A stretch of DNA of 63,910 bases, counting the filler, from Polymyxa betae A26-41 (lineage: Eukaryota > Protista > Endomyxa: Phytomyxea): NCBI GenBank assembly GCA_003693705.1. It is 9 parts of 9 records of this genome, joined end to end, with 100 filler letters (N's around TTAATTAATTAA, not from the genome) between each part and the next. Parts side by side here need not be neighbours in the genome. Positions count along the whole stretch, not along the records: positions 44,457 to 59,706 come from RBZT01000511.1; 8 more parts are not named here. One strand, 5' to 3'. Under the pieces are notes generated by a model. It ran no database searches. It was not told the origin of the DNA and saw only the letters and a list, made by a program, of their open reading frames with translations. The position numbers were made by a program, and so were the translations under genes. Of the stretch, positions 2,818-63,910 are shown one piece after another; position 1 is the first letter of the stretch, and each line of letters opens with the position of its first letter.

Positions 2818-3475
2818 TAGAACGCCTCACCATTGCTAATGCATTTCACGTCCATTCTGTAGCCCTATTTGCGAGCAGATCAATGCTATCAATGTATCTA
2901 ATATCACTGCTCTTAATAATGAACGACTTCCATGTATAAGCAATTCAGTGTCGTTATTGTGTCCTTGATGATGAACTTGGGTCACGCCTCATGAGAATCT
3001 GCAAGCTTTACCTTGGTTGTGATGTGATCATGTAGACCAGACTTCCAGCATCTTGATGAAAGTCCTTTGGTTTATCGCTATCGATAGACCAGCGTCCGAT
3101 TGAGGTACTGAACGAACGACAATCTAGCCAGCTACCTGCGATCTAACTTGAAACCGTCCTGGCTCAAGCATGGTAAACTGGCAGCCCAGAAGCCCAACCA
3201 TATCAAACTGATACATCGTTTCAAAGATTCTGTCTGATGCAGAAACGAGCAGATCAGCACGGTTGACTGTGTATAGCCAGGTCGCTGACATCGGCCTTTG
3301 ATTGAGCGGATTATCGCATTGAGTAACGCGCTGAAAAACAACCTGTTATCGTTTGCGAGAAGTGAAGGAAAAAACGTCGGCAATATGGAGCGTGGGTCAT
3401 GCCTCGGGCGCATGCCTGCGTCATGGTCCAACATGATCATGTTGGATTCTGGTCACAGAGATAAATGTCGAATCG

Positions 3476-4720
3476 ATGTTGCCTGACCTAATCTCTGGAT
3501 CATACGATTTCGTATCGTATCTAGATCTGGCCGAGATCTGGGCCTTGCTGAACATCAGCCTTGATGGAGTCGGGACCGAACATCTCAGGCATTGTGGCCG
3601 ATTAATGGCAACGATGCGCCAACTGGCTGCCTCTGTATTTGAGCTATCGCCCGATCAAATCTACTGGATCATGTGCGATGTGATCCAGCCGCATCTGAAC
3701 CCCAAAACCCGCTCCGTCCTACGAACACGTTTATCATTGTTGCAGCAGCGGGAGATGCGATGCCTCATTACGAAGCTCTGCCAATTACCTGACGATCACG
3801 ACGAGAGTATCGATGAGCAATCGGTCATTTACTTGCTCGAGTTAATCACCGCCCATCAGCGCCCTCGCTTACAGATTGTCTATGGCGCCGCCGTTCGGTT
3901 TCAGAAGGCGATGATCTTCCAATGGGCGATCAGTCAGCTGAAACATGTCGATCATCATTTCCCAGAGCTCAACGTACCTTCCAACGATTGCGAACGAATC
4001 CATCAGGCTTTAGCGAGCCTCGAACCCAGCCAGAACTGGAGCGCTGAACAGATTGTAGCGCTGATCGACACTGGCTACGAGCCGAGCAAATTCTGTCGCG
4101 TTTTCTATTCGATGGTGGAATCACAGAGTCACCAAGCGATCAAAGCCCTTCTCGATTGCGTTTTCACGGTCGAATTATTACAACAAACGAACCAAGATTC
4201 GATGAATCCGGTGGGTTATGCAGCAGACCTAAACGATCAGCAGCTCTTGAAAATCTGCCTCAATTTTCTCTCGCGATTCGAAAAGCGACAGATTTGGCAG
4301 ATCGCCCTTGCGGGAGAGCTTCGACAAATGACGCCGTTGATATTGGCAACATATCGGGGACATGTTGAATCCGTCCAGATCTTGCTGGATTTCATTCCGA
4401 GCATCCTTCGTGAATACGCTATGACGCAGGTCGACTTTCGTGGCCGGACAGCAATCCATTGGGCGGCGTATAACGGTCATGAGCGGGTACTCAGGATGCT
4501 GTTAGAAGGATGCGAAACTTGTCGTGTTCAGCTAAAGGTGATGGCCATGGTCGATATAGTCGTGGGTGGTCATCGTCCTGACCAATATCGACATCTTACA
4601 GCCAAAATTCGACACATCTTTCACGAGATACAGGAGCAAGGTGACAACGATGCGATCGGATTGGATTCCACCGGCCCGCTGCAATCCACATTGGAACAAT
4701 TCCCGCTCACAGCAACTTAA
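3476..4720 (+). CDS. Protein with C-terminal ankyrin repeats
   Basis: 414-aa ORF with MNPVGYAAD, MTPLILATYRGHVESVQILL and GRTAIHWAAYNGHERVLRMLL ankyrin repeats. Confidence 0.8.
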   Translation: MLPDLISGSYDFVSYLDLAEIWALLNISLDGVGTEHLRHCGRLMATMRQLAASVFELSPDQIYWIMCDVIQPHLNPKTRSVLRTRLSLLQQREMRCLITKLCQLPDDHDESIDEQSVIYLLELITAHQRPRLQIVYGAAVRFQKAMIFQWAISQLKHVDHHFPELNVPSNDCERIHQALASLEPSQNWSAEQIVALIDTGYEPSKFCRVFYSMVESQSHQAIKALLDCVFTVELLQQTNQDSMNPVGYAADLNDQQLLKICLNFLSRFEKRQIWQIALAGELRQMTPLILATYRGHVESVQILLDFIPSILREYAMTQVDFRGRTAIHWAAYNGHERVLRMLLEGCETCRVQLKVMAMVDIVVGGHRPDQYRHLTAKIRHIFHEIQEQGDNDAIGLDSTGPLQSTLEQFPLTAT

Positions 4721-13091: not shown

Positions 13092-14435
13092 TCAGAGCCA
13101 GCCTCAACGACGCCAGAGTCAGTCTTGGCGACGTCAGTGTCGATCCTCGAACAATGTCGAGCTCCCAGGTCTATGGTTGACACTTGGAATGTGAATTATA
13201 CAACGGACGGATGGAGCTAAGAACGAATTCAGAAGGGAACTGGCACAGTTTGCGACTTCGTGCGCCGTCAACTCGATCTGATCGCCAACCAAGTCGATCA
13301 ACTCGGCCTCATTCTGAACATTTTACAGACGAGGAAACGAAATCGTTTCGGATAGCTCGCTCAGTATAGCCTCAGACTGATCGCTACTACATTCCTGGTT
13401 AAAAATTAATTCATACGTTGAAGAGTTCGTTTTAAAGCGCATCTGACTTACATGTCAAAATTTGACGTGGCCGATTCGTGCAAAATCTCCTTCTGAATTG
13501 AAATATTGACAAATTCCTATGTAGCCATATTATAAACGAATGCAATGTTCGAATCTGAGCCAAACCTGATCTGCCTCAATGTCAGTCCGAAGGCGGTATT
13601 TCGTCAAGGCAGATTTTGACATCAACTCGAAAACAAATTCCGAGTAATGGATTTCATTCTGCACGTTCATGATTAACGGCAACAAGACGAGGATGCGGTT
13701 TCAGTTTCGAAAATGGATGACTGTTACATGCCACAAAAAAGCCAGAAGATTTCGCGAATTGCCGAGCCTTTTCCAGAAAGCTGGAGCCATTACTATGATG
13801 CTGATCCACCGCGAAAGGGGTCAAAACTTCATCAAACAAAATGTATTCTGCGGAACGACTGTCCGGAGTCGGCGTTTCAGGAGAATCTGGCGTCGTTAAA
13901 TGTAAGGTGGAAGGAGTCGACTTCGGGTTTAACGGAAAAGGTTTTAATGGCGAAGTAGGCGATGCTGATGCCGATGGTGATAAAGGGAAAACAGCAGGCT
14001 TAGTTGGCGAAAGCCAAGACTGGGGCGCAGGGGGGAATCCGGTGCAGGCCTGCAATTCGATTGTTTAAGTGAGGTCCCAAGAATCAACTTCGAAAACCAA
14101 GACATTACGAACTAAGACATTGTATCCCACTGTAGAACGAGTGTCCCCCTACACATTTTCATGGACAGCGCAGCCATCGTCCACGGGTGGACGCACTGTC
14201 GCAGATTTGTCCACGGGTGGACAGCGCAGCCTCTTTCCACGGGTGTTGAAAAGGCACCACCGCACTTTAAAGACCCTTTAAGAGCCTGGTTGAAGTGCGT
14301 GGCCTCTACTTTTTGGCCGTCTCCTTATTTAGTCCCTCTGACTGCGGAGCGCATTTTTGATCTCCTTATATTTTCAGGAGGTCGCCGACCTCCTAAAAGA
14401 GATAAAACGCTGTCAATCCGGAACGCAAAAAGGAT

Positions 14436-15732
14436 ATGGATCTCTTTGAAGAAGTAGACAATGAGCTATCAACGGATTCAGAAGATGACCTTGCCGTTGT
14501 CCAAGCTGTTGCTGTCTGCCTTCATACTACAATAAGCCTGCTCCTAGCAGATGGCAGAAGGTCGAAACGGGCGAAAATGGAGCAGTATACTTTTCCGAAT
14601 GAAACTTGGGAGCAAGCTTATGCTAGTGATTCGAACGGATGGTTCCATTCGAATTTGCGATTGAATCGTAACTCGTTTGAGTACATAGCACAACGGATAG
14701 AGCAAGCAGCATCTGACCTTGGCCTCAACTTGTTCCCTGCTGCGAACGCTCGCATAGACTACAAAATGAAGCTTGCCATGACCATGACCTATCTCGCTCA
14801 ATCATCCGGCTTTCAGGCGACGGCTAGTCTGTTTGGAGTGGCCAAAGCCTCGGCTATTGTCTTGATCAACAGTATGGTGGATATCCTCCATCAAATTTCC
14901 TCATTGGTTATTAAAGTCGGGATCCTTCACGAATACTCGGAAATTAATGGACAAATAAATGATCAGATGCCTGAAACTTTTAATGAATGGACTGCCGTAG
15001 CTGATTTATTCGAGAAACTTCGTGGTTATCCCGACGTTGCAGGCGCCGTTGATGGGACTTTAATAGAGGTCGAGCGTCCCAAAGAGCATGAAGGTACGTT
15101 TGTATCAGTGAAGCATTCAAGGTGTTAATGCTATGCTGAATGAATACAGATGGTATTGTAGAAAAAACTTTCCTGCAATTAATATGCAGGCAATCGTTGA
15201 TAGCCAAGCCAGATTTATGGATTACTCAATGCGTCCTGGCTCCTGTGGTGACAAGAATCTTTGGACCATGTCAATACTCGGTCAAAACTTTGTACAAATA
15301 ATACCACGAGGGATGCACCTAGTTGGGGACGCAGGCTATACTCTAACAAATGTAATGATGATTCCTTATAACATTACAGAAGACATGGCAAGGGAGGAAT
15401 CCACATTTAACTACCTTCATTCTTGTACAAGGATCTGTGTGGAACGAGCATTCGGCTTGTTGAAAGGCAGATGGAGAATATTGAAGCACGCCCTAAATAT
15501 GAAATCCTCTGAGAGCATTGGACGTACTATCGTCTCCTGCATGGTCTTACACAATTTGACGATTGAAGCCAAGGATTCTTTCACAATTCCAAGCGAAGAT
15601 CGTGTAGACCCATTCCGAGGGCAGCATTCAAGGTGGATAGAATCCCGGCCGGGGGATAGGGAACATGCCCTATTGAAAAGAGAGCAAATTAAGCAGTACT
15701 TGTTGGACATTCAGACCACTGAATGTAGCTAG
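14436..15732 (+). CDS. Harbinger (HARBI1-like, DDE_Tnp_4) transposase
   Basis: VAGAVDGTLIEVERP, WYCRKNFPAINMQAIVD, LVGDAGY and RICVERAFGLLKGRWRIL. Introns lie at about 14916-14966 and 15098-15149; the second junction is uncertain. Confidence 0.9.
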
Positions 15733-15765
15733 TCATGTTGCTATCAAATCTTTTAAACGAAAATC

Positions 15766-16793
15766 TTAGGCATTTGGTTTACCAAGGTTTTCTGCAATCT
15801 TGTTAAGCGTAGCCAACATCGATTGCAGAACAGCAGTTTGCTGTATGGTTGTGGCCTGCTGTTCGACCTGCATGGATTCTAACTTGGCGATGATCTTTCC
15901 TTCGGACGACGCCACAGTGGATTTGGCCGAACGCGCTGATGCAAGTTCAGATATGGAAGCAGCAACGCTGGCAAACGCAGATTCGACGAATTCACCCATA
16001 TTTTTAGGGCCAGTTTTACGCTCTGTGTCCTTAGCACAAGGCTTGGTCTGCGGTTGGGGTTCCTGAGAACGCTCTTCAGAGTAGACTGCCGATTTTATAT
16101 TCAGATTTGGCGTCTGTGAGCCTGACAGTGGCTGTGATTCAGCAATCGCCTTTGGCTGCATTCCTGAGACGTCCTGGAACAGCTGTCAGCAAATCGTTTA
16201 TAGCCCATACAATTTACCAAACCTTCAAATGGGAACATAGAGTATCCCAGTATGGTGGATAGCTAACATTGGCTGAATTGCCTGTCGCTTTGAATGCTCC
16301 CAGAACTTGTTTGTATTCTGTCTTCAATGCATCAATCCGGTTTTTATCTGCCTTGGATCGAAAGATGAATTGCCTCTGATATTAAACCGCTGAGTGAGCC
16401 ACGCCCAGAACTGGGATTTCTGCACATTCGTCTTTGCATCAGAAAATTTACTTCTTGCAATCTCAGACCAGCGAGTTTCGATAAGAAGCTCGACGAGATC
16501 GCTCGACCACGATGCCCGGTTACCAGAGCCGGAAGAAGGGGTTCCATTTGGCGTTTTTCTTTTAGGTTTTTTGGCTGGTGTGGTCTTCAGGGCAGCCGGT
16601 TTGCGCTTCGAAGTTACACGACTTTCAACGCCTGGGGTCTCAGGATTGACCACAGTAGCCTTATAAACAACACGCTCAGAAGGTACCAACAAAGGCAAAC
16701 CAAGCGAAGTTTTGTCTGTCAAAGGCGGACAAGGGCTTGAATGTTGTCGGAATCATCAGAGGACAATGAAAGATCAAGGTCTTCGTAATTCAT
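15766..16793 (-). CDS. Harbinger Myb/SANT (MADF-like) DNA-binding partner, with frameshifts
   Basis: RASWSSDLVELLIETRWS...QKSQFWAWLTQRFNIRG..FDPRQIK continues as NRIDALKTEYKQV..ATGN if one A is added to an A5 run at about 16341-16345. The C-terminus is coiled-coil-like. Confidence 0.75.
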
Positions 16794-17673
16794 GATAATA
16801 CAATTGTTCCCGGAATAAGGAGTTTATTTCAACCAAGTATCTACTTAATGCTCACCCAAAAAGGAGATGCGCAAAAAGTAGATCTCCCGCACTTCAACCA
16901 GGCTCTAAAGCATGCGCGCAGGTTTGATACCACCTACCGATAGTAAAGTGTTTTCCTACAATAACGTTCAAGAAAGCAGTGTAATTGGAAGAAGAAACAC
17001 ATTTTTCAAAAAGGTCTGTTGGATTGTGGCCAATCCAAATTGAAAGATTGTGACTGTTTTGACTTGAACTACACCCTAGACTGTACACTTTTTATTGATA
17101 CAGATATATGGTCGGTGGACAGAGCTAGTGTTGCAGATACTGATGCGACAACGGTCGCTTGCTGACTCCACCATGGATGAGCAGGCATGAATCACGACGA
17201 CCTATGTGATGAAGTTTTTGTGAATCAATACAACTCACTCCTTTATCTGAAAATTAACGTCTACGATTTAGTTACGAAACGCACGATCGCGTATAGCATA
17301 TAATGTCTAGGAATAAGAGCAAGAGCGTGAGCAGGAGATCGACTCGCGCTAACAATGAGTTGGGATCTAACGTGGAGAACCCTAACCCTAATGCTCCTCG
17401 AGACGGTCAGGTTTTGGAGTCTTCACAGCTAGTATCAGTTTTAGGTGAGAAACGATTTTGAAACATTGGCAGTGGCAAGCAGTTTGTTATTCAGTTCAAT
17501 TGCCTGCTAGAAACGACCAGCACACTCGACCTTGCTGTCGATTCCAACCCTAATCCGGGAATGCAATCGATCTCAATACATCCATCGTATCATATTCCAC
17601 CAGAAAAAAGAATCGTTTTTATTTAGAATGAGAAATGAAAACGACAAGAAGATCGTGTCTGAATGCGATTGAA

Positions 17674-20376: not shown

Positions 20377-22303
20377 GTCATGCAAAAACCCTAACCCTAA
20401 GGTGAAGGTCGCCACGCTAGCAATTGTCCTGCTGTGTGATTGTTGGCCAATAACAAACCCTAATTAATACACGGCTGATTATGCGGCTGAATCTTCAGTA
20501 TGGCATAACAAAGAAATTAGCCAAGACAAGCGCCTTCGACTACGACTGGCTACTTTTGATATTTGGGTTTAGGGATTTAGGGTTTTGCGATAATCTGAAC
20601 TGTTTAATGCAAGTAGATTCCAATCAAGGCCCATTTCCGAGAGCTTAATCTTCTTGATATTACGCTCCCAAAATGTCCTTTTAAAAATATTCTGTCCATT
20701 GTATGTATTGGTCTGTTAATATGCATGAATGTTAAACCCTACCTAGTCAAAATGGCTTCGCACGTCTTTTCACTCCCATCCATACACCAGACAGTTGGCC
20801 AATACTGCCTGATAGCGGGTGCTCCAGATTCAAAATGCATCCTCGATACTTCTGATACCTACTATAGTCATTGAGGAAGAGATTTTTATCTACAGAATTC
20901 AACATACCATCAAAGCCGTTGTGTCTTTCCATCGCCTTCACCAACCTCTTTATCCCTTTCTATAGTCTCGCCCGTTCCTTGCCATAAACGGTAAACCCCA
21001 AACAGCCCAGATATCGTTCTGCATGATGTATGGCTGTGCACAAATGCTTCCATGCAAAGGTGCTCAAGCAAAAAAAGCTCTGGTTTTATAACTCGTAGAC
21101 CCTCTTGTACTATTTTAGAGAGAAGTTATTGTCAAAGGATCATTAATTCCGTCTATCACTACATGGAGTCACGAACTGTGCGCTGGTCAGCGGAGATACA
21201 GTCCCATTGCAGGAGGGCGTACAAGCCCGCGTCATGATGACCAACGATTCGGCCGACGACTCGGCTGAGGAGGCAATCGAATCGGGTTCCGAGGAGGAGG
21301 CGTCCAACAGCAGCGGCAATGTACGACCATTAGCGTGTCCGCGTCGAGCATGATTGAAGGATATTTGGGGAATACCGATGAGAGTCCTGGGGTGCATTTG
21401 GTGGGCTTTGGTATCTTCGTGGTTTTCGTAGTCCGGAGCTGCGGATTGCTCGCAGAGGGGGGCCAATCGCAAGTGCATGCGTGTTCTGTTCGATCTTCTT
21501 GAAATAATGAAGTTTATGGATTCTCATCTTAATGTAATGATGTGTCGATCACAGCCCTAATCAAAATTTCCTTTTCAGCATAATGACAAAAAGTTGACAT
21601 GATGCGATCTGGTTGTGCCGCTGTCAGTGATAAATACGATTCGCGGTTTGAGTGTTGCTCGAAAGGCGGCCACATCTGAGTTTTTTCCGGCATTGATCTT
21701 TGAAAGATTTCGGCTCTGATGACGCCGATACAAGAGCTTTGCTTACAAGGGCTTCGCACCAATAGTGAGTTTTAAGCGCCTTGACGTTGTCTGATATTGC
21801 TGGGTCGCCACATATTAATAGACATGGCTTCCTTAATTCTCAAGTTGCTTTAATAGAGCAGGTTGGGGTGTCTTTTATGGATATCCTGCTATGGCGCTCT
21901 TGCTGGCTTCTGAAATTAACTGTAAAGAGCACAGTTCCGAAATCCCATTGATTCGCATTCATAATGTGTTTTTTTGGTCGACGACCAACAAGATCAGAAG
22001 CAAGACAATGGTCAGGGTATCATGGCAAGCGACCATGGTATGTGTGGTGCATAAAGCCGAATACGCCGTCCTTTGTCGAGTTTGTGTTTTCTATTGAATG
22101 CAGGGCTGATCTGGTCTCCGGAGCTCGCACTGAGATTCTGAAGAGATGATATCAATTTTGCTCAGCAGCAAAGAGACAAAATTATATGAGCAATTTTTTC
22201 CAGCTGATTGTCAATTTAACGCAATTTTTATTGCTCGGATGCAGTCTACAAACGACGACAGATAGATCATACTCACATACTGGGAGTGGTGTCGAAAAAT
22301 AAT

Positions 22304-22377
22304 TGGAGCGTGCGGTATTCGAAACCGCGACCTCATGCTTGCAAAGCATGCGTGATAACCAACTACACTAACGCCCC
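22304..22377 (-). tRNA. tRNA-Ala (TGC)
   Basis: GGGGCGTTAGTGTAGTTGGTTATCACGCATGCTTTGCAAGCATGAGGTCGCGGTTTCGAATACCGCACGCTCCA folds as a full cloverleaf with the G3:U70 Ala identity pair. A T5 terminator follows. Confidence 0.93.
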
Positions 22378-23380: not shown

Positions 23381-25018
23381 TCAGCAATAGACCGTATTAC
23401 AACCGCTGGAAGAGCTGTTGAGAACGACTCTAACAAGAATAGTCAGAAAAGTAAACAAAACGGGGAATATACCATGGCGCGGGTTGGACTGGTCGATACC
23501 CAATGATAGATTTCTTGAACGAAATGCACGATAATCGTCCGTTAAAATGCCAGAATCAGGGATAAACGCCGGCTCATGTCTAGGTGGTTCCACACGACCA
23601 GCTTGGCAATCCTGGTATCTATTGAAGCACTCTTCAATATCATTACGAAGCCGTTCAACAAAATCCAATATATTTGGATGTCCATTTCCGGTAAAAAGCG
23701 AACAGAAACGCCTGTGGTAACTTTCCAGGGCGTTGTTGGTTCGATTGGCGATTTCCTGGCTGTTGATGCTGTTATAAATATTCCAATCATATGGAGAATA
23801 TTGTCGCATCCATGTCACACGTATATAATTGAAGAAAGTGTCCAGCTTGGCCATTTCCTCATCGTTGGTAAGCTGCAGTTTCTGGCGAAGATACTCAAAC
23901 CCTAAGATGCAAATTTCGTGATGAGGGATGACAGTGAGCACATCAAGAACGCCTGGGCGCATAAGCCTGGCAATGATATCATCTGAAACATGCAGATCTT
24001 TTAGCTGTCTACGATTGGCTTGCTTCCAATGAAACAAGCAGCCAATAACCATTACGTCGTTGCCGAATACACCTAAGATTGATATCAGGAATTTCCCGCT
24101 ATGGAATGCCGAAAATATAAACCTTTGATCCCTTTGATTAAGGCCTTTTCAAAGTCGCAGGTGACCGTGGCGACCCGGATCTTACATCCAATAACAGCAA
24201 CACACATATTCAATGCAAACTGGTAAAGGTAGGTGGATTTACCTGTCATCAAAATATGAAATACTGGTATATACATATCGGTCCCAGCGTCTTTCGCCAT
24301 TATAACTAGGAGCTGATGGAACTTGTCTGGAACCACCTTGAATGTGCTATCAATAAATAGCTGAACTCCTTCGTAACGAAGTATTCTTCGCAAACCCGAA
24401 TTAAACCATCCCACAAGGCGATGTTGCACTGTGGGTGAGGATGGGTCGTACACAGGAGTATTGAAGCAAAGAAATGGCAGCATTCCATCCACAGACAGAG
24501 CCAAGTTGGGGTTTTCAATATCCTGAAGCCTATCGGCTCGCCGACCGCCATGGCGCCTGTTCTCTATACGAGAAATAACCTCGCTCTTGGTCATCATATG
24601 TATTGGTTGGCCAGCATACTTCGTGGTGATGAGATTTCTGACGTCAACCCATAAAGATTCGGCAGTTTTTGAACGTTGAGAAACTGCAAGGTCGTCAATC
24701 ATATCCTTCATCTGAACGAGTATATTGAATCAATTAATACAAATATCCAATATTTTTGGAAACGTACCTCTTCAACAGCATCGACAACAAGAATTGTCTC
24801 AGTGCTGGAATTAAGGCAACAAGTGTGCTCTTTCGAGCTGAATCCTTGGTCAATTGTTCCTTCTGGATCGACAACAATAGCTGCCGGGCATGGATTCGGC
24901 CGTTTCTTTGATTTACGGTAATGACTGCATCTATAGTAATGCTGGCCATTTTTGTACAGTACAGAAATTTTAATCCATCAACGTAGATGGGCGGATGACG
25001 AGGATTGGTCGCAGGCAT
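23381..25018 (-). mobile_element. MULE (Mutator-like) transposase gene with N-terminal FLYWCH-like finger, multi-exon
   Basis: QLFIDSTFKVVP, VTCDFEKALIKG, GCLFHWKQA and RTNNALESYHRRF. It is colinear with the copy at 62676-63910. Confidence 0.85.
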
Positions 25019-28441: not shown

Positions 28442-28722
28442 GAGATGCCCATAGTGAGAAATTTTTCTATCCGCAAGAGGATAGATGGGCTGCGTTTCCG
28501 CCAGATTCTTGGCGGATGGAAAACTGCGCCTTCCGCCAACCACCCCAGCTTTCTTTCCTTTCAATGGCGATAAGACGATAGATAACTCGCTTGTAACATG
28601 TCTTCTCGGATGGTGTTTCAAGTACAGTATGATACAATTTTTTTTATAGATTTCTTGGGATTTCGCGTGTTTCTAGCATTATACTACTGAATAACGATAA
28701 AATGGGGATGGAAGAGAGATAA

Positions 28723-29011
28723 GAGCCTGTTCCAAGTGAAAAAATGCGGAAAATAAATGAGCAACCCTCCAATCAGATTTGCGATCTATTTCTAGCATCG
28801 CATTTATTGAAAATGAGCTCCGCAACCTGATTTTCAATTAAATGTGATATAATAACAATCCCTAGAAACATCGCAGTGGTTGGCGCCACGCAATTCGCAG
28901 AACTCACGATCTCATTTATTACCTTATTTAAATACAGTCATTTTCAGCATTTTTCGGATGTCATACCTGGACCGCATTTTTTTATCGCATTTTTTCACTT
29001 GGAACAGGCTC
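28723..29011. mobile_element. Tourist-type (Harbinger) MITE, 289 bp
   Basis: Perfect 26-bp TIR GAGCCTGTTCCAAGTGAAAAAATGCG with a TAA TSD on both sides. Confidence 0.9.
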
Positions 29012-29459
29012 TAAATATATTCACGGAATAGCCCAATGTCTACCACGAGCGATGACGACTCGTTTTCGCTTCGAGCATCTAAAGCAGTCAGGATACCATA
29101 CTACATGACAGGATTCGTCAGATTGGCCAAAGCGGATTGACTGCGCCCAATTGTAAATCGCATTGAAGGAGGCCCGCGAAAGGACCTATTATCGATCTGC
29201 ATTCCTTTTGTTAGTAAAAAGACAGAGCAGACGATGGCCTCTACAGAACTTTGGACGGCCACCGATACCGATGCGATTAGAGCCCCAACCTGTCAGTGAT
29301 CCATATTACAGCGATAAAAATCGAATTATAGACCACGGGAAGGTCAATAACACTTATAGAAATAACTATCGAGAAACTCGCAATTTTATTGGTGGGGACT
29401 CTATAATTTTATCGCGATATTCTGCTTGAAACAGCCTCTTTGATGAAACGAATCACAGC

Positions 29460-29723
29460 CGTATATTATTTTCGTCGCAATAGAATTTTTAGGTGCTGGC
29501 ATTAAACAGGCATTTTCCTCCCTTTCTGTGATCAATCGCGATCACGTCTTTCGACCATCCGCCAACAGACTGGCGGATGCGCTCCTATCTATCCACTGGT
29601 TGATAGAAAAATGTTCTCAGTGCCCTGTCGAATGGTGTCATAGCGATTGATCACAGGAACCTCGAAAGATGCCCGTTTAATGCCAGCAGATAAATATTCT
29701 ATTATCGACGAAATGAATATACG
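29460..29723. repeat. Foldback/MITE-like element with about 80-bp imperfect inverted arms
   Basis: CGTATATT..TTTCGTCG..ATAGAAT..TGCTGGCATTAAAC..CTGTGATCAATCGC at 29460-29540 is mirrored at 29643-29723. Confidence 0.65.
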
Positions 29724-29906
29724 ATAGTTTTACAGTTTTAGAGATGTTCTTTGATAAAGGGAAGAACTTTGAGCTGGAGGAAGGCGCAGTTTTCCATCCT
29801 CCAACAGGCTGGCGGATGAGCAGCCCATCTATCCACTTGCGGATAGAAAAATTTCCCGCATAGTATCGTAGAGTAATGTCGGAGTGAACATTATCTCAGA
29901 AAAACG

Positions 29907-29978: not shown

Positions 29979-30159
29979 TCATTTTTTTCGACTTGCAAGA
30001 CTCTGTTACGTTCAATATCGATCAAGGCCAACAGAGAAACTTGATTCAAGAAAGAATGGTAGAAATTCTGCTTGAAAAAGACATGTCAGCACGTGAGCCA
30101 ACCAATGAGTAGTGAGTAATGACTAAAGCCAATATTTGGGTTGATACTGAAACGTTAAG

Positions 30160-34071: not shown

Positions 34072-35158
34072 TCCAATCGCGATACGCTACTAAAATGACA
34101 CACACGAATTACAGCTCGTTATCAACTCTGATTTATTCCAGCTCGAATCCCAGGACCCAAATCCAGCTCGGTCCGTACGGATGCCGTACGGACCTCTCGG
34201 GGGTCGAGCCTATTAATATTAAGGTACGTCGTCATACTTTCATCAGGTTCGCATCTTTGTTATGCATCAGATTTATGCGTCCGTCATCAGGAGCCATTGC
34301 GTGCGCAGTTCGTCAAACTGCGTACGCTGTTTTTTTGGGAATTCAGAATTTTATATTATTATTTTAATAAATCTGATACAGAGTTTAGGAATCTGAGCTT
34401 TCGCCTGAGAAATTGAATTATAGTACGAGAATCTTAAAATGAGGCCAAACTTTACAAACGGACAAGATAAAATCTGGATGGAACCTGCATGTAGATTTCG
34501 GAAGTTGCTCGTTGGGAATTCAGATCTACAGGAGCCCTACGCTGCTGCAACACTCTTTTCACAACTTCAAAAAACTTCTTCCAATTCAAGTTGAATTTCA
34601 TATTCTGATGATGTCTTTATAATCGTCATTAGATTCATCAATGAGATAAAAGTCAAAGATGAAGAAAAAAACTCCAACATTTTAACGGTATTTTGGATTA
34701 TGAGGCATGTTGCGACCATGTTTGAGACCGCTCAGGGGATCATCTTCGATAGTACCGTGATACATGAAGTGATCAGATGTCATGCCCATTGAGCATGACA
34801 GTACTCGCAGCCGCCCAGCCGACCACCAGGCAGTCGTACTGGCAACGAAATCTGGTGCAGGACGCCCTTCGTTGGCCTTGAGCATCACAGAATGCTGAGC
34901 AAACAAAAAGCGGAATGATTCGTAATAATTTGATGTTGGGAAGAACGCCGTCTGGGCATAACTTTTTGTAATGAAGTAGCCTTGAGGTAGTTGATCAGAC
35001 CAAGCTGAAAATACGGTTGATGCAGCGGTCGGTGAGCTGGACTCCGTTTCTCAGGTGGGTTTTAACAAAATCTTCAAGAGTTTTGTTCATGATGATCTTC
35101 TATCATCCAGATGAAACTGACGGCTGAAAAATAGAAATGATCTGATATCGAATCAAGA

Positions 35159-35683
35159 GCCGCTACGCGGCTGGTGTAGTTGGTTCATATGAGCGCAGCC
35201 ACCGTGAGGTGCTGGGTTCGAATCAAGGTCAAGAATGGTTTTTTTTATCATTATACAGCATCCCAAAGCGGTACCAATTTGTGAAGCTAGTGGGGTACGG
35301 GGTGCGACTCCCTGTATGGATTGGTCCAGTGACTACCCTATTCACCATGGCAGGTCATTACTCACTTCTACAAGTGCTCTTAGCGGCCGTTGGACATTGG
35401 CAAACCCTTCATAAAAGTTGCCAGCATTTGGGCGAAAAGCAAGTGTCGAGCAAGCTCCCCTGATGGTTGAACTGCATTTCGACATGGTCAGGCGCCCCAG
35501 TGACTGAGTCCCATCAAGGTCACCGTATCCAAGAAAGGCGTAATCTCTATGTTATGTTACTGCAAAAACATATGAACTCGACAATTCCGTGAGGGGTCGG
35601 GCCCAGCGCAAGGGTTAATGCGTCGCCTACCTCACTCATATCTATATATGGGTGTAATAAATAGATAAATCCAATCCAATCCA
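35159..35683 (+). mobile_element. tRNA-derived SINE, full length (525 bp)
   Basis: A-box TGGTGTAGTTGG and B-box GGTTCGAATC in the head, a (AATCC)n tail, and a perfect 16-bp TSD TGATATCGAATCAAGA at 35143-35158 and 35684-35699. Confidence 0.88.
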
Positions 35684-37379
35684 TGATATCGAATCAAGAA
35701 ACCGCCCGATGGAAGTCCGAATGATAGCTATCAATGTCCATTTGATCTATTATGAAGGAATTCTAGAGAGCAGCCATCATGTGGCGGATGAATACCATAA
35801 ACCAATCTCCAACGTTTCTCGAAGTCAGAACATCGCCTGCTCTCTCCGAATATAATCCCGCCGGAACCTTAACCTCTGGCAGTTAAACCACGACCACCAG
35901 ATTCGATTTCGCATCCACGACAATATTTTCAAATTCCGTTTGATGTAATTGGTCATATAGTCGCTGGCAGGGCCCAGCATGCCCCAATGACTGTAAAACC
36001 GCGTCTTTTGGGACACTTAGGGTTAAGTCACTGAAGCGGCCCAATGGCAGACGGGCTGCTGCTCTTGCAAATGGCTGAAAGTGGGCTTATCTATCATGAT
36101 GGAACGGCGGACCATTGCTATAACCGCATCCTACACAACTGAATCGACAAACTGAGCGGCAGCGGCCTGCCATGATTGACACAGAGCTCCAGCTTGTTCC
36201 AACTTGCACAATTTGGTTCCAGATCTGGATAATTCCGTCGTCCTGGCCTGGGATGCCACTTTTGGTTTGCATGTAGACTTTAATCCTGCTGAGGACGTAC
36301 AGGCCGTCTGCCTCGGGCCCCTTGAGTCTAGCAAGCTCGCATTCAATCAATATGTGGATCGAACTCTCTTTGGCCGGATTGAGTTCTTAAAGTCGCGATT
36401 TGAAATCCCCGTACCTGTAAAGCAAAGCCTTTGGACAGATTATCCAGGGCTGATTGGCCAAATTAAAGTGTCCATGCTCAAGAATATGGTGAGCCAGAGC
36501 GACGTCGAAACAGATGTAAATGCTGAAATTCATTGTCAGCTCTGCTGTCTTCAATTCTTCATTACTCTCTCACGGCGTTACAGAAAGTCAGACCATGGAT
36601 GAAGTCGATAAGTATCTGAGCTTGCATTACCCAACGGTAGATTCACAAGATTACAGGCGAGCCCATTGGAGGAAACAGTTTCATCGCCTACGTCGCCATG
36701 GATGTTATTTTTTATTCCGAAACATCTTGAGCTGTGACTAGAATATTGAATTATGGCCGGGATGTGATCGGGGTTTGCCGAAACTCTTTGAGTCCAGTTA
36801 ATATTTCTATCCGCCGGCGGATGCATCGCAAATTAACTGCTTTAAGTCAGATACTCTCAGTGCGTTGAAGTGTTCCAATTGCCGTTAAAAAGTTTCTGAT
36901 AGCCGATCCCGGTAGTAAGGCTGTATCCGACACGTGAGTATCGCCTCGGAGCCCTAGACTATTCTGGATAAGGCGCGGAGCTTCGTCTAAAATATTCACT
37001 GCCAAAGGCATTTGCGTCAGCTAAGATATCCAATGAGCGCGCATGCCCAATTTCAACGAATTGCGTCGCTATCATCAGCTCGATTACATTGATCAGGAAA
37101 ATTGACTGATCCCCTTCAAACTTGGACATTTTGAAATGTTCTTGCCTATGCATCTCGTGAGGTTCCCGAAGACGACTTTGTTCCTGCTGACGAACTCAAT
37201 AATCATGATTCGGAAACGGTGGTCGAATTTCTTCAAAACTGCCGTACAGGCCTCAGCCTACGATAAAATATTGGAGCTTCGCTGATTTTATGATGGACGA
37301 TCTACGAATATGAGGCACCGACATGTGCGATTATGAACCGTTCAAACACCCAGCAAACTGAATTCTGTATTTGATTTTG

Positions 37380-41526: not shown

Positions 41527-43377
41527 TGAATCATTTTTCTCATGAAAACCGTTACGAAAGCAAAGGAAAGTCTGTTTCAGAGGGCACTTAGCGATAGATA
41601 CTCAATGCTGGCGAGCCTCATTCAAGGATTCAAATACTCGGTCGATTGTCATGGACTCGACTTCACAAAAGTTTGGATAGTTTTGCTTCCATTCAATTGC
41701 AATTCGCCTTCTTTATTGATAAATATCGGCGTATAATCGTCTTCGATTTCTTCGTGGAAATTATGCAGATTAGAGTTATCTCCATTGTCGGTGGGCTTTC
41801 GGGGTGGCCATGGACGCTCGCATTCCAATGGAGCTGTGGGTGTAGGCGAAGTAGAAGCAGAGCAGCCGAGAGTGGTGCCTGAAACATGGGACTTACATCG
41901 GCCCAGCCGGAGAAGTTTGCCCAGACCTGAGAGCATTTGTAGGCGCTACGACTGTTTAGATCGTAAGAGAGAGGTTGAGAGGGGGTCGCACACGAAGCAT
42001 GGTCGAACCTGGTATCTGGCAATAGCGGCCTCCACGGACTTGATCACCGGGCTGGGAATACTGGTCCCGGCGTCTAGCTAAACTCTCATGATCGCCGCGC
42101 GCAGATATTTCAGATTCTCCGTATCAAAAAATGCGTTCCTATACAAAACGTATGTCACTGCGGCTGTGCCTTTGTTTGTCTATATTTCTATGAAAAAATT
42201 GCACGGTCAATGCCGGATTGCGGAATCCAAATCCCTCTTTGTTTGATATACAATCTCCTTTTGAATATACAATCTCCTTTTCGATTGCTCTTTCTCCGTT
42301 GGATTGTGAATCGGGCAATATCGGTTTTGTCCGGATGAGATTCAACATCTCCGACTTCAGAATTGTTTCGAAGCCAAATCACTACGCAATAGTTGAACCG
42401 TGTCGAAGAGAAGTCTAATGTTTGCTCTATTAATCTTTCTTTGAAAATCCGGAACTCTTGCGATGATTATATTGCGGTAACACAATATATGATATCTGAA
42501 ACTACATTTTCTAACCATTTAACAGAATGTTCCCGTAACGAGTTCAAAACTATCAAGGATGTACGAAATCACAAGGCTCGGATGGAAGGTCGTGAAAATG
42601 ATGCAATCCGAACGGATATTTATATTATGGCTTTACTAGAAGAAAAATAGGATTTTATTCTTTCATATAAGCGAAAAATTTGAGAGGCAATTCAGATATT
42701 GCTGAACTGAAAACTGTAATAATTCGCGTCCGGAGTTGAGGATGCGACTGAGTTTGGATTCAAGCGCAACGAATTTTTCCTCATAATTCAGACGGAGTTT
42801 ATGCGGGACATGATGCTTGAAGTATTTTCATTTTGATAACTGCCAATTTTTTCAGAGAATTTGCCACCAACCGCTCTCTTGAGTTAGTCACCAGAGAAAT
42901 CGCGCGACAGCAGTGCAATTTCTGAACATACGCGAAAGCGAGACTGCGATTTTGTGCAAGTTTTGTTTATTATTTTTTAGAATTTCAAATTCTCATGCAA
43001 CGATTCGTCTTCAAAAATGGCCAAAGGGAGCTGGTAATTGATTAAACACATAATACAAATTGAAACGATGTAAACTTTGAACTCATCACGATATCTGTGG
43101 TAGATCCCACAATAACTGACTATATCCGGCAGTCTTCTGTATTAGTTCGCGCGAAAATTCCAAAGCATGAGCTGCTTTATGGAAAACACTACAGGTAAAC
43201 GCACGAGTCTGATATAATCTATTGTCGACTCTGAGCACAGTATAATTAATAATGCCAAACATAAACCATATTTAGTTAGACTGTTTTAGTGTTGACATCG
43301 CAGATACTCCTATTGTATAGGAGCGCACTTTTCGATACGGAGAATCTGAAATATCTGCGCTCGGCGATCATGAGAGT

Positions 43378-43962
43378 TTAGCTAGACGCGGGCGTGATTG
43401 CGGGTATGGGCAGCTCCAGCAGCTGCTGGATGAATCGTTCTCGGATCGATCTGGGGTTGGAAACGCGCCCGCTGAAATACGTTTCGCTGCCATTGGGATG
43501 GACGGTAATACTGCTCCTCGACATTGGCAGCGACCAGGCGATATCCGAGAACCCCTTCACGGAATCGATCAGCAGCTGCATCAGCTTGAGCTTGATGGCA
43601 TACTGCAGACGCGATCCCTCCAGGCGGTCGTACACGACCAGGCATTGTTCGGGCGTGAGCTGATCGAGGTATTCCTCTTGAGAAACAAAGGTGCGAATTC
43701 GGCGATTGAGTTGGGGCTCCGGCAGGGCAGGATGACAGAGGGCGTTGAAGGTGATGACAGAATCGCAGATCTTCATCATGGATTTAGATGTTGCAGCCAT
43801 CTCCGCCGCTGATTAAAGATCCAGCAGATCAATAATACTGCTGAGGATCGCATCGGGGATGCTGGCGAAATCTCGGTCGTCGGATCGGGCGTTTTCCTGG
43901 CCGGGTTGGGCCTGGGCCAGGGCGGCGCACAGCAGGGTGGAGACGACGATGAATCGAAACAT
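43378..43962 (-). pseudogene. Signal peptide + F-box-like protein, disrupted
   Basis: ATG 43962 gives MFRFIVVSTLLCAALAQA, then DFASIPDAILSSI/YDLLDL*SAAEMAATSKSM (F-box pattern) across a 1-nt frameshift and a TAA. It joins ORF 43378-43800. Confidence 0.55.
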
Positions 43963-45337: not shown

Positions 45338-46760
45338 CCGTCCGGCGCAAACTGCTGTATTATCATGTAAACATAAATGTGACTTCTATTGATGAAAAAT
45401 TCAAAAATCATTATCCTGTTAGAAGACGATGAATCGTGACATGGACACAGGCTGAAGCTGTATATTCTTCTTTGGGGAAACGTTTCCATGTGTGTCTGAC
45501 AGGTGGATAAAAAATGCGAAAGAATATGTTTGCTCGATTAGAATCCAGAAAATGAGACACTACAGAACTGTCTCCGATGAGAAAAAAGCGTGCAAGGTCA
45601 GAGCAGAGGGCCTAGGTAATGGAGAGGAAAGAGAATGGTCTGAAAGAATGCTGCTATAAGAAATGTCAAGATAATGTGGTGAAATGATGTCTGTCCAATT
45701 CCATTTTTATAAATCCGATATTGAAGTGGGAAACAATATCCGGTTGAGAACCAGAATCACTCAGATTCCGATTTCTTATTCCGGTTGTAGTCTCATCCAG
45801 CGTCTTATCTAGTGATCTGAAATTTCTATCGAAAGCGTTGTGCCAGCCGCTAACAAGAATCAGAAATGACCCTCGAAGTCCGGATGCAGTAAGATGTTGG
45901 TTTTGTGCAATATGTTGGTTGGAGGCTGATCTGCTTGATCCGTCTCTCTCGTCGGTCATGTCTCACAAACGATGGACACAGACAATTAGAACACAATATA
46001 AGAGTTTTTTATATATTAGGTCGCAAAACATCACGACAGGTAAATATGAACTCTCCTAGCCTTCACAGTTAAAAGAACTGCGAAAGAAAGTTCCAGCAAC
46101 TACAGAGCCAACCATAGCCAACTGACTCGCTATCGCGATACTGGTGGCACTGGAAGATGAATCGGACACCAAACCATTCGCACATTCAACACAATATTTC
46201 TTAGAACGCTACGCAAATCGATAAGAATAGTGGGCGGTGTGTTACAAGAAACGCTCCATTCCTGAAACTATAACATACGTCAAGGCTTTTAATAATCTGT
46301 TGAAAAGAGTTGAGTCAAAATCGCTCAATCGACAAATGCGCAGTTTGTTGGAAAAAATTGATGCAAACTGAGGAAGACTATTTCACCACATATATACGGT
46401 AACGACGAAATTACATTTAAAAATACTCCAACATGATTTTTGGACGGCAGGTATGATTTAGTGCATTTCTGAGGAGATTGAAGTAGCTTTCAAATGAGAA
46501 CGGACTCCTTATCGCCTCTTTCTTCTGATGCTGAGGCGGAATAAATAATCGATGTTGAAGGACAACGAAAATATGTTCTTAAGCGGAGTTATCGACGACA
46601 TTGGTCCTGTTGAACACCTTTATCAACTGAAGGAGGAGGATAGCAATGATGAGGCTTGAATAGCCTAAGACATGTACCATGAGTGTCACCTCACATGTAC
46701 TTGTGAATGTGCGGATTACGAAAGTGTCAATGAATGCGAATTCATCATGTTAAGTTGAAG
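45338..46760 (+). mobile_element. Heavily degenerate MULE-like remnant
   Basis: Its start CCGTCCGGCGCAAACTGCT..ATGTAAACATAAAT matches 62558-62600, upstream of the MULE transposase. A SWIM-like TCTCECADY lies near 46700 and there are many stops. Confidence 0.4.
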
Positions 46761-46905
46761 AACTTTCTTCCAAATCAGCGAGGTAAAACAAAATATGAAC
46801 AACCGTTCTGATATCCGGAAACTGGAGCCTTTTAACCATTAATACTGGTAACTTTATGACAGAAAAAGATGTGGACAGACAGAAGATAACATCTCAATCG
46901 CACGA

Positions 46906-47135
46906 TTGGATTTGGATTGGATGGGATTTCAGGATTTATGAAGATGAAAGTATTAAATAACTACACCCATGGCAAGGCCCGACCTCTCACGGAATTGTCG
47001 AGTTCGTATATTTTTGATGTACGGTAACATAGGAATCACGCGTTCAAAAACATGGAGCGTGCGGTATTCGAAACCGCGACCTCATGCTTGCAAAGCATGC
47101 GTGATAACCAACTACACTAACACCCCCATTATATA
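46906..47135 (-). mobile_element. Retroposed unit: intact tRNA-Ala plus SINE 3' tail
   Basis: Flanked by ATCTCAATCGCACGA (46891-46905) and ATCTTAATCGCACGA (47136-47150). It shares GAACTCGACAATTCCGTGAGRGGTCGGGCC and an ATCCA tail with the SINE at 35159. Confidence 0.75.
47053..47126 (-). tRNA. tRNA-Ala (TGC)
   Basis: Identical to 22304-22377 except C5>T (G:U pair in the acceptor stem). A T5 terminator follows. Confidence 0.9.
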
Positions 47136-47701
47136 ATCTTAATCGCACGAGAAAGGCATTCGCGTTCGAAGAACCAGCGAAAACGTACTGGCAGAAGAAT
47201 TCCGAATCGTCAATAATAAAACAAGATGTATTTTAACATAAGTCCGTTGTCTGCTTCAAACGCCGCCGAGACAGGAAACGCGGCCTTTTATAAGATCCCA
47301 ATACCTTGTCCGTTATAATTTATTTTCAAATACCGGAATGAGCATCAAAAACCCGAGCAAATTGTTTTGGAGCCGTTTTAAGGCCACTCGAAGGATTTGA
47401 AATCCCCATAAAATATATCTGGGGCGACAGTGACAATGAACATCACTACGGGGGGGAATTTCCCTTCGTGCTGTTGATAACACCCGATTCCTTTGAAGGA
47501 CGCATTTTTTGAAAGCATCACTGAGATAGAAATTTTCCTGTTTATTTTCCTTCACAGAATTGCAGGGTTGATCTTGACTTGGGGCATGATACATCGTTAA
47601 TCATGGCACTGGGTTGAATATAGAAATCTGGGTCGATCATTTTGTGGTAGGCTTAACAATCCAGCTCTGCGATTAGCAGAGACTGCCGCGGTTATGGAGT
47701 A

Positions 47702-50125: not shown

Positions 50126-50680
50126 TAAATTTTCATTATTTGCTCTTTAGAACACGTCACCCAGTCACAGAGTGGAGACATACTGGAGACATCCAGTCAC
50201 ACTGGCATCACGTTTCTACACATTCCGAAAATTTGACATCATAATTGGGTGCTACACATTGGGGGAATTTTTGTGTAGATATTATTTTGTCTACGGTATT
50301 CAATGGCGCAATATCTTCATCTCCATTTCAGGCAACCATCAGGAGCGCGGCCTCGAAGTACCGAAAATAGTATTTCTCTCCTTTATCCCTATTTTATTGC
50401 CATAAATCCTAATCCCACAGATTTTGAATATCTAAATAAACATTTGTACTCATCCAAGCAAGCTACCGCTATCGGCAATAAAGTAAAGAATGCTACCGGT
50501 AGTCGGTGGTTGACGGAAGGCGCAGTTTTGCATCCTGTTTTGGATGCGCAGCCCATCAATCCACTGGCGGATAGAAAAAATTTAACGCAGGCAGTCACGA
50601 TGATTGCTTTGCGCCCAGAGGTTTCGAGGGTAGAAGACGCGTCTGATCTTGAGTGGCATTCTGATAGCCCTGACAAAACC

Positions 50681-62675: not shown

Positions 62676-63910
62676 ATGAGAAACCCATCTAATCCTGCCG
62701 TTTCCATTGACGGGTTTACCTACGTCTACAACAAAACTGGGTCAACCGGCTCAAAATTTTGTCGTTGCAGCAAACGAAGGCCGACACAAAATCGGCCTGA
62801 AACCTGTTCCGCCAGTTTCACATTCAATGCCGATGGCACATTGAAAAAGGGCTGTACTGCTGATGATCATGCTTGCACCCCGTGCACGCCCGCAAATATT
62901 GTTGACATTCAGGAAGAGGTACTGTAATACGGTTCTTGATGGCAAATATAGATAGATGGCAATTCAGATGAAAACCCTTGTTGATACAATGGCTACATCA
63001 GAAAGACATCTCACTGCAACGGAAATATGGGTACGAGTATGGAGCAATGTCACATCGAAATACTCAGGAACCCCAATACGAACTCTGAAAAAGCAAGAAG
63101 TTATGTCCCGTGTTCAGTACGTCAGGAATGGCGGTCGCAGAGCAAACAATATGCGTGACATCGAAGAACGCGAAATGGCCTTATTTCCGGATGAACGGGC
63201 CCCATTTCTGATGATGAATACACCAGTCTACGAAGGAACGACACAGCATCGGATAAACGGATGGGGACATCCCGGTTTATACAAGCTGTTGAAAAGTCCA
63301 AACGTCCACATATTTATTGATGGGACATTCCGCATAGTCCCCAATCCCTATTCGCAACTTCTGATCATTATGATCAGAGATTGTCCAACTGATCTCTATA
63401 TTCCGGTTTTGTATATTTTAATGACTGGCAAATCAGCTTTCTTGTATAGGTTTGCGTTAAACATGATCACAAACGTTATTGGTTCAGCTGTTCGACCTGC
63501 ACAGATATACTGTGATTTTGAAAAAGCCCTAATAAGTGCAGTTAGAGGTAACAGTCAATTAGAGGAACATTACATGGGCTGTTGACTTGGAATCGCTTTT
63601 CTAGATGTTATGGGACCTAATTCTTCGATCATCGGATGCCTTTTCCACTGGAAGCAGGCCATTCGCCGGAAGCTTGTCAAACTCAAAGTTGATGATGGCA
63701 TTATTGGTCGACTGATGAGACGAGATATGATTGACGTTCTCACGGTTGTTCCTGAAAATGAAATCGAGACAATTGGTCTGAAATATCTGGAACACCAGCT
63801 TCAACTTTCAGAAGAAGACAGCACGAAAATGGAAACGTTTTGAGAATATTTTAAGCGGACATGGATGAACAAGTTCTCTCCAAGAGACTGGAATCTGAGC
63901 AGGATTCTGG
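62676..63910 (+). mobile_element. MULE transposase gene (FLYWCH-like + DDE), runs off window end
   Basis: IDGFTYVYN..FCRCSKR..CSAS; HIFIDGTFRIVP; IYCDFEKALISAV; GCLFHWKQA. Same exon layout as 23381-25018. Confidence 0.85.

Follow-up and report, generated by a model that had tools for sequence, protein, structure and literature searches.

How does a complete tRNA gene come to stand in front of a SINE tail, with one pair of direct repeats enclosing both? The question is raised by positions 46891 to 47150 of a 63,910-nucleotide stretch of DNA from the plant-parasitic protist Polymyxa betae A26-41 (GenBank assembly GCA_003693705.1; hereafter, the window). The original prediction had seen there an intact tRNA-Ala gene retroposed with a SINE tail, a possible nascent SINE. 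On the minus strand, the element reads as a 15-bp repeat, a 9-nt leader, tRNA-Ala(TGC), TG followed by T5, a 140-nt tail (47045-46906), and the repeat again, which is the anatomy that had been predicted. Its parts, and the two loci in the window with which it was compared, are as follows.

47136 to 47150, minus strand: 5′ copy of the target site duplication (TSD), 15 bp, TCGTGCGATTAAGAT at 47150-47136
47127 to 47135, minus strand: 9-nt leader, which differs from the upstream flank of the tRNA-Ala copy at 22304
47053 to 47126, minus strand: complete tRNA-Ala(TGC) with G3:U70 and discriminator A73, without added CCA (ARAGORN, Rfam)
47046 to 47052, minus strand: trailer, TG and T5 (47050-47046), a run of the Pol III terminator type
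46976 to 47045, minus strand: SINE-derived 3′ domain, with 69 nt at 82.6% identity to 35535-35603
46970 to 47021, minus strand: tail core, common to a multicopy family, within the SINE-derived domain
46942 to 46975, minus strand: tail middle, with no significant alignment to the SINE at 35159-35683
46906 to 46941, minus strand: tail 3′ end, which aligns to the end of that SINE and terminates in ATCCA(A) repeats
46891 to 46905, minus strand: 3′ copy of the TSD, 1 mismatch, TCGTGCGATTGAGAT at 46905-46891
35143 to 35699, plus strand: full-length SINE used for comparison (35159-35683, hereafter the 35k SINE) with its TSD; it has a body and the same tail core
22304 to 22377, minus strand: tRNA-Ala(TGC) used for comparison, without tail or TSD (Rfam, 66.9 bits)

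The two copies of the TSD match at 14 of 15 positions. With one end fixed, such a direct repeat is expected by chance within 500 offsets at a probability of 3.6e-5; in the whole window, repeats of this type 100 to 600 nt apart form eight clusters, two of which correspond to the TSD of the present element and that of the 35k SINE. The TSD brackets the tRNA-Ala and the SINE tail together, its 5′ copy lying 9 nt upstream of the tRNA, and the tRNA is placed 5′ of, and in the same orientation as, a 5′-truncated SINE 3′ end. This single TSD, together with SINE homology that begins at T5, supports the proposal that tRNA and tail arrived as one retroposition-type insertion. The junction to SINE-derived sequence lies at the end of T5 or just beyond it. 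A leader, a tRNA without CCA, and a T-run trailer together correspond to what a Pol III primary transcript covers; the 9-nt leader (47127-47135) is likely the 5′ leader of the pre-tRNA, and part of it could be untemplated. Scaffold joins (44 N, a 12-base spacer, 44 N) occur at eight places from 12992 to 61892 of the window; one of them is 80 nt upstream of the 22304 tRNA, and none touches the element.

To characterize the origin of the tail, we aligned it to the 35k SINE, which has a perfect 16-bp TSD. For this SINE, we found no published description in literature searches, which miss most subscription papers. The best match (47044-46976 against 35535-35603) covers 69 nt at 82.6% identity, with an E value of 1e-14. 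The stretch of the tail directly behind T5 is significantly similar to the SINE when taken alone (score reached in 0 of 2000 shuffles), and the same holds for the stretch with the 3′ end (9 of 2000 shuffles), while the middle (46975-46930) shows no significant similarity to it (421 of 2000). The two sequences are roughly collinear (140 versus about 150 nt), with a middle that cannot be aligned. The ~130 nt of homology originally proposed is thus an overstatement: ~69 and 29 nt of the tail align to the 35k SINE, and ~35 to 45 nt do not. The core motif occurs only twice in the window. A hairpin can be drawn for the core in both copies, but it folds no better than shuffled sequences (z of −0.60 and −0.72), and folding of the tail RNA gave no signal above shuffles either.

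The head of the 35k SINE is a decayed tRNA-like sequence. An Rfam search with it returned no tRNA match at E values up to 10; in direct comparison, it scored 47 against tRNA-Ala (0 of 2000 shuffles) and 31.5 against tRNA-Glu (33 of 2000). Behind the head of the element, and likewise behind that of the 35k SINE, come ATG(G) and a T run. The B box is the canonical GGTTCGAATC in the 35k SINE head, whereas the element’s tRNA has U53:A61, and the SINE head may therefore come from another tRNA. It had been suggested that different tRNA heads are being coupled to one tail. The suggestion is a weak one: it draws on two elements, and the 35k head is closer to tRNA-Ala than to tRNA-Glu and so may not be a different head at all. 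Nor is the idea of head exchange by a template switch onto a tRNA new, being already set out in the parts of PMC5729268 that we covered. Directly behind the 35k SINE head, the T run is a T8, at which Pol III should terminate; in this family, then, T runs may not be a stop in every case.

The tRNA-Ala at 47053-47126 scores 64.7 bits against Rfam RF00005, compared to 66.9 bits for the copy at 22377-22304. As had been noted, the two differ by one base, a C-to-T change at position 5, which turns C5:G68 into U5:G68 and so retains a wobble pair. The flanks of the 22304 copy have neither the tail, as had also been noted, nor the repeat, and they share nothing with those of the element. The element’s tRNA has an intact cloverleaf, anticodon, and G3:U70 pair, the identity pair of tRNA-Ala, and its A and B boxes are present. 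In run X2, one of the public runs considered below, the depth of 564 over 47053-47104 indicates that this segment is identical in about three tRNA genes.

Several features of the tRNA genes were observed in passing. There are three in the whole window. In both tRNA-Ala(TGC) genes (47053-47126 and 22304-22377), U53:A61 closes the T stem where the Rfam consensus line has the usual G53:C61, and the B box is altered as a result; the D arm of both has what we take to be a tRNA-Val-like look. Contigs over 47052-47121 from runs X1, X2, and X3 contain a single-copy, nearly identical tRNA with a changed middle anticodon base (TAC, Val) and a 3-nt gap, possibly a case of Ala/Val remolding and possibly a pseudogene. 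Lasting alloacceptor remolding is called rare among nuclear tRNAs in the portion of PMC4981973 that we covered. Loose ends of contigs over 47052-47126 (X1 to X4 and X9; judged by eye) suggest tRNA-Ala(CGC) genes with the same 3′ half, as well as a variant of tRNA-Ala in which a T-stem change is compensated and 13 nt appear to be deleted. The trailers of tRNA-Ala (22295-22303, minus strand) and tRNA-Glu (29979-29992, plus strand) both consist of a T run followed by CGAC, perhaps a terminator context common to the two.

To estimate how widespread the element and its tail are, we mapped assembled contigs of six public runs (X1 to X4, X8, and X9) to the window. In X2, summed depth rises to as much as 3439 over the tail core compared to 167 to 174 on the flanks. 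We read this as a family with a copy number between several and about 20, the latter being an upper bound since overlapping contigs count twice and summed depth is not a copy number. By eye, loose ends of single contigs from X4, X8, and X9 run into sequence of the 35k SINE type on both sides of the core. Outside the core, depth in X2 equals the flank value exactly (46850-46969 and 47030-47041), and an unbroken contig spans 46300-47082 in both X1 and X2. (The X2 loose ends and contigs used here are among those listed, 8 of 24 records; the depth table takes in all records.) No sister copy sharing the tRNA-tail junction or the non-core tail was seen at ≥80% identity among X2 contigs, and below 46970, no other X2 contig matches the tail. 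The tail middle likewise has no match among family members in the contigs, and no donor subfamily was found. No contig in the six runs joins a tRNA to the tail core elsewhere. At this sensitivity, the element is single-copy. The prediction of a nascent SINE is thus unsupported, given the T5 ahead of the tail and the absence, among the mapped contigs, of any further copy with this junction or with the rest of the tail. The core motif was also scanned against other collections. Viral contigs and genome contigs gave no match, and the sole match among metagenome contigs (L001) was rejected as due to chance, as only the 20-mer matches, without SINE context.

The same runs were inspected for the state of the insertion site. 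Both junctions can be found in X1 and in X2 (studies P1 and P2, one of which may be the source of the window), and the 3′ one in X3, X4, and X9 (studies P3, P1, and P5). The element is therefore found in all five runs, from four studies, that cover the site; X8 does not cover it. Neither an empty site nor a joint skipping the element was detected in the six runs, and an allele with the tRNA and both 15-mers but no tail, which would have pointed to a SINE landing behind a resident tRNA, appeared in none of the five covering runs. With no empty-site allele found, it is the TSD by itself that indicates co-insertion. In X3, one contig stops at 47045, immediately past T5; we draw no conclusion on read-through from this since the X4 and X9 contigs end elsewhere and contigs show neither strand nor transcript ends. 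A 9-letter loose end in X9 recurs on two unrelated contigs and is likely a library adapter. Contigs from X3 and X4 also show GT..AG intron-like skips near the element, at 46399-46450 (plus strand) and 46664-46718 (minus strand), in a region that is riddled with stops and encodes no identified protein. Lying on both strands, the skips would correspond to overlapping spliced transcripts. A reading of the plus-strand flank (45950-46650) as a MULE relic was dropped, as it had no tblastn match, and the flank thus supplied no paralogous empty site.

We next compared divergence in the parts of the element. The tRNA differs from its paralogue at 1 of 74 positions, while the tail differs from the 35k SINE at 12 of 69 (Fisher P = 0.0008); this tail divergence is no clock, however, since the tail may derive from an unseen subfamily. 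Against the tail core (3 of 41) or the TSD (1 of 15), the excess is not significant (P = 0.13 and 0.31). Correspondingly, the probability of at most one change in 74 positions is 0.29 by the TSD clock, 0.24 or 0.025 by the core, and ≤0.01 on the 69-nt tail match. It is plausible, though less likely than not, that the tRNA is a working gene born on a SINE tail and kept by selection while the tail decayed. If so, the locus would be a preserved intermediate of SINE birth and direct evidence that retroposition makes dispersed functional tRNA genes.

Overall, the element is probably a one-off chimeric retrocopy, likely produced by a LINE reverse transcriptase that began on SINE RNA and then changed template to a tRNA-Ala not yet processed. 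In the proposed sequence of events, the LINE enzyme would bind the conserved core of the SINE RNA, prime on the ATCCA repeats, and copy about 140 nt; it would then jump to the U-rich 3′ end of the pre-tRNA and copy it to its start. Alternatively, the SINE RNA and the pre-tRNA may have been ligated before reverse transcription; both template switching and RNA ligation are named for same-orientation chimeras in the covered parts of PMC13174262. The resulting tRNA copy, with internal A and B boxes and a terminator, would likely give rise to a normal pre-tRNA transcript ending ahead of the tail. Since its transcript would stop at its own terminator, the element would be a dead end as a SINE and possibly a working tRNA gene, and the lack of daughter copies fits a T5 terminator brought along by the pre-tRNA. 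As for the enzyme, no partner LINE, with which SINE2 elements share their 3′ end, was seen: none of the 156 window open reading frames (ORFs) searched (18 of 42 long and 138 of 185 short ones) matched a non-LTR reverse transcriptase or endonuclease family.

The position of the junction bears on the choice between this chimeric retrocopy and a two-step route, in which a truncated SINE inserted behind a tRNA-Ala gene elsewhere, T5 was read through, and that RNA was retroposed to the present site. A loose end before 47053 is the consensus of two contigs. By eye, one agrees with the 22304 copy, while the other can be matched to the trailer of the element over ~14 nt with a shift of two (chance ~1e-3, a post hoc hand estimate). 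This is a weak hint, from sequence matching, that another tRNA-Ala gene may share the element’s trailer past T5 and may be the parent gene. A shared trailer, if real, would place the junction ~7 nt past T5, where the sequence has a short match to the SINE (GCG). Such a position is compatible with template switching onto a pre-tRNA produced by read-through, and with the two-step route as well. The latter also accounts for the same anatomy and the single TSD. It requires passage through T5, however, and no remnant of a first TSD is seen between T5 and the tail; with no joint of tRNA and tail core elsewhere in the six runs, its source would have to be lost or too diverged. We consider it unlikely, if still worth keeping in mind. 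A similarly low probability attaches to the insertion of a whole SINE that later lost its body and had its head converted by a tRNA-Ala gene, or to an old founder-type copy with its head intact. The resemblance of the 35k head to tRNA-Ala, the ATG(G) and T run behind both heads, and the contrast between a diverged tail and a nearly unchanged tRNA all speak for such a history, and conversion or rearrangement is given among the alternatives for PittSINE in the covered part of PMC5729268. But two extra events are required, one of them ending exactly at the T run, the canonical GGTTCGAATC B box of the SINE head contrasts with U53:A61 in the element, and the TSD has diverged at only 1 of 15 positions.

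Two further readings fare worse. If the element belonged to a young SINE family, still active and newly headed by tRNA-Ala, it would show the SINE2 layout of tRNA head, LINE-type tail, and TSD, as seen here, but the single-copy state outside the core at ≥80% identity and the T5 directly behind the head argue against it, and the TSD mismatch and outlier tail fit an older copy; we regard this reading as very improbable. Least credible is a truncated SINE that landed behind a tRNA gene resident at this site, with the upstream 15-mer arising by chance. It would explain an intact tRNA without any special argument from selection; yet the 5′ repeat lies upstream of the tRNA rather than between tRNA and tail, a coincidence with the probability of 3.6e-5 given above, and no covering run has the tRNA without the tail. 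Elements that target tRNA genes, such as the Dictyostelium TRE, insert next to them. With such an element, the TSD would flank only the element and leave the tRNA outside, and the TSD here encloses the tRNA.

The window contains other mobile sequences and genes. Copia-type and chromodomain LTR relics and DDE transposases are present, as is an aspartate-semialdehyde dehydrogenase whose best relative is from Plasmodiophora brassicae (63% identity), pointing to another plasmodiophorid as the likely host. Elements with terminal inverted repeats lie at 14278-16909, 42067-43392, and 28722-29012. The first, with a DDE_Tnp_4 transposase and a Myb-like ORF, is presumably PIF/Harbinger-like, and the last, whose ends are similar, resembles a short non-autonomous copy. 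Two MULE-like transposase relics (23381-24729, minus strand, and 62956-63897, plus strand) are ~50% identical. A short repeat family has four copies (28455-28572, 29555-29619, 29775-29855, and 50470-50582), one of which is ~50 nt upstream of the tRNA-Glu gene. Ankyrin-repeat ORFs occupy 1234-2817 and 3437-4720; the first has a signal-peptide-like start and, we assume, resembles candidate secreted proteins of plasmodiophorids.

Models of how SINEs arise and exchange heads infer a TSD-flanked chimera of tRNA and tail; the element shows such a chimera directly and suggests why most of them fail to spread: the pre-tRNA carries its own terminator along. It also extends the chimera class, and a describable SINE family, to plasmodiophorids. 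SINEs and LINEs are mentioned, without detail in the parts covered, among the repeats of P. brassicae (bioRxiv 10.1101/2024.04.03.587992); for plasmodiophorid SINEs in general, our literature searches, which miss most subscription papers, returned only genome papers with a passing mention. Although tRNA genes have been described as behaving like mobile elements (PMC4981973, in part), the same searches, with the same limit, returned no published functional tRNA gene delivered on a SINE tail. If this copy is expressed, it would be a clear example of how retroposition can create a dispersed tRNA gene.

Two known classes can be compared with the element. Members of tRNA-derived SINE families (SINE2) have a head with A and B boxes, which is present here, and many copies with the same head-tail structure, whereas the mapped contigs contain a single such junction. 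SINE2 elements have no Pol III terminator ahead of the tail, whereas the element has T5 at 47050-47046; this rule may be looser in this organism, the 35k SINE having T8 at the same place. Chimeras of the U6/L1 type have a single TSD, a small RNA placed 5′ of a truncated retroposon on the same strand, and a unique junction, all of which are found in the element, the last among the mapped contigs. In this class, the junction lies at an oligo(U) end. The homology here starts at T5, with the by-eye hint of a junction ~7 nt further on. The best reading of 46891-47150 is therefore a chimera of known class, consisting of a retroposed pre-tRNA and a 5′-truncated SINE.

Among the closest published counterparts, U6-Mon-1 and U6-L2 of platypus and U6-AnolisSINE2 of Anolis are attributed to a switch of template, a mechanism invoked for stringent LINE systems as well, in the covered part of PMC4476161. 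Like the element, these U6/SINE and U6/LINE chimeras have a Pol III RNA 5′ of a SINE or LINE segment, with TSDs in platypus. Unlike them, the element contains a complete pre-tRNA with internal promoter and terminator and comes from a rhizarian protist; in addition, the platypus U6-L2 copies mostly have a 5′-truncated U6 and TSDs of 1 to 9 bp, compared to 15 bp here. Human tRNA/LINE-1 chimeras, of which 21 are known, are mostly antisense tRNA halves ascribed to twin priming (Law and Burns 2026, PMC13174262, in part). They, too, combine a tRNA and a 5′-truncated retroposon within one TSD, and 3 of the 20 loci listed (20 of 21) have a nearly full tRNA. By our reading of the coordinates, a same-strand chimera on chr6 (tRNA-Glu 1-72/L1MC1; its TSD cells are printed one row higher in the source table) has an 8-nt leader and an 11-nt spacer, close to the layout of the element. 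The partner in the human cases is L1 rather than a SINE, and the parts of that paper that we covered make no claim of a working tRNA gene.

A switch from SINE RNA to a tRNA during target-primed reverse transcription was proposed for the origin of PittSINE from TguSINE1 (Suh et al. 2017, PMC5729268, in part), and similar switches were invoked for SINEU (PMC4494074, in part). The PittSINE model, like the element, involves a TSD-flanked tRNA-tail chimera; but the founder in that model is inferred and gave rise to a family, whereas the element is a directly observed candidate for a founder-type chimera, whose head is intact and which did not spread. Retrocopies of snoRNAs resemble the element in combining a small RNA gene with TSDs and can remain functional, but their tails are short and A-rich and they depend on a host intron, as described in the covered part of Weber (2006, PMC1687206), whereas the element contains a putative tRNA gene. 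The retropseudogenes of Schmitz et al. (2004, as cited in the covered part of PMC4476161) also point to pre-tRNA as a template for LINE reverse transcriptase; those copies are 3′-truncated and tailless, in contrast to the full-length tRNA with a SINE tail found here. What distinguishes the element from these known systems is its intact, promoter-bearing tRNA and the lineage in which it occurs.
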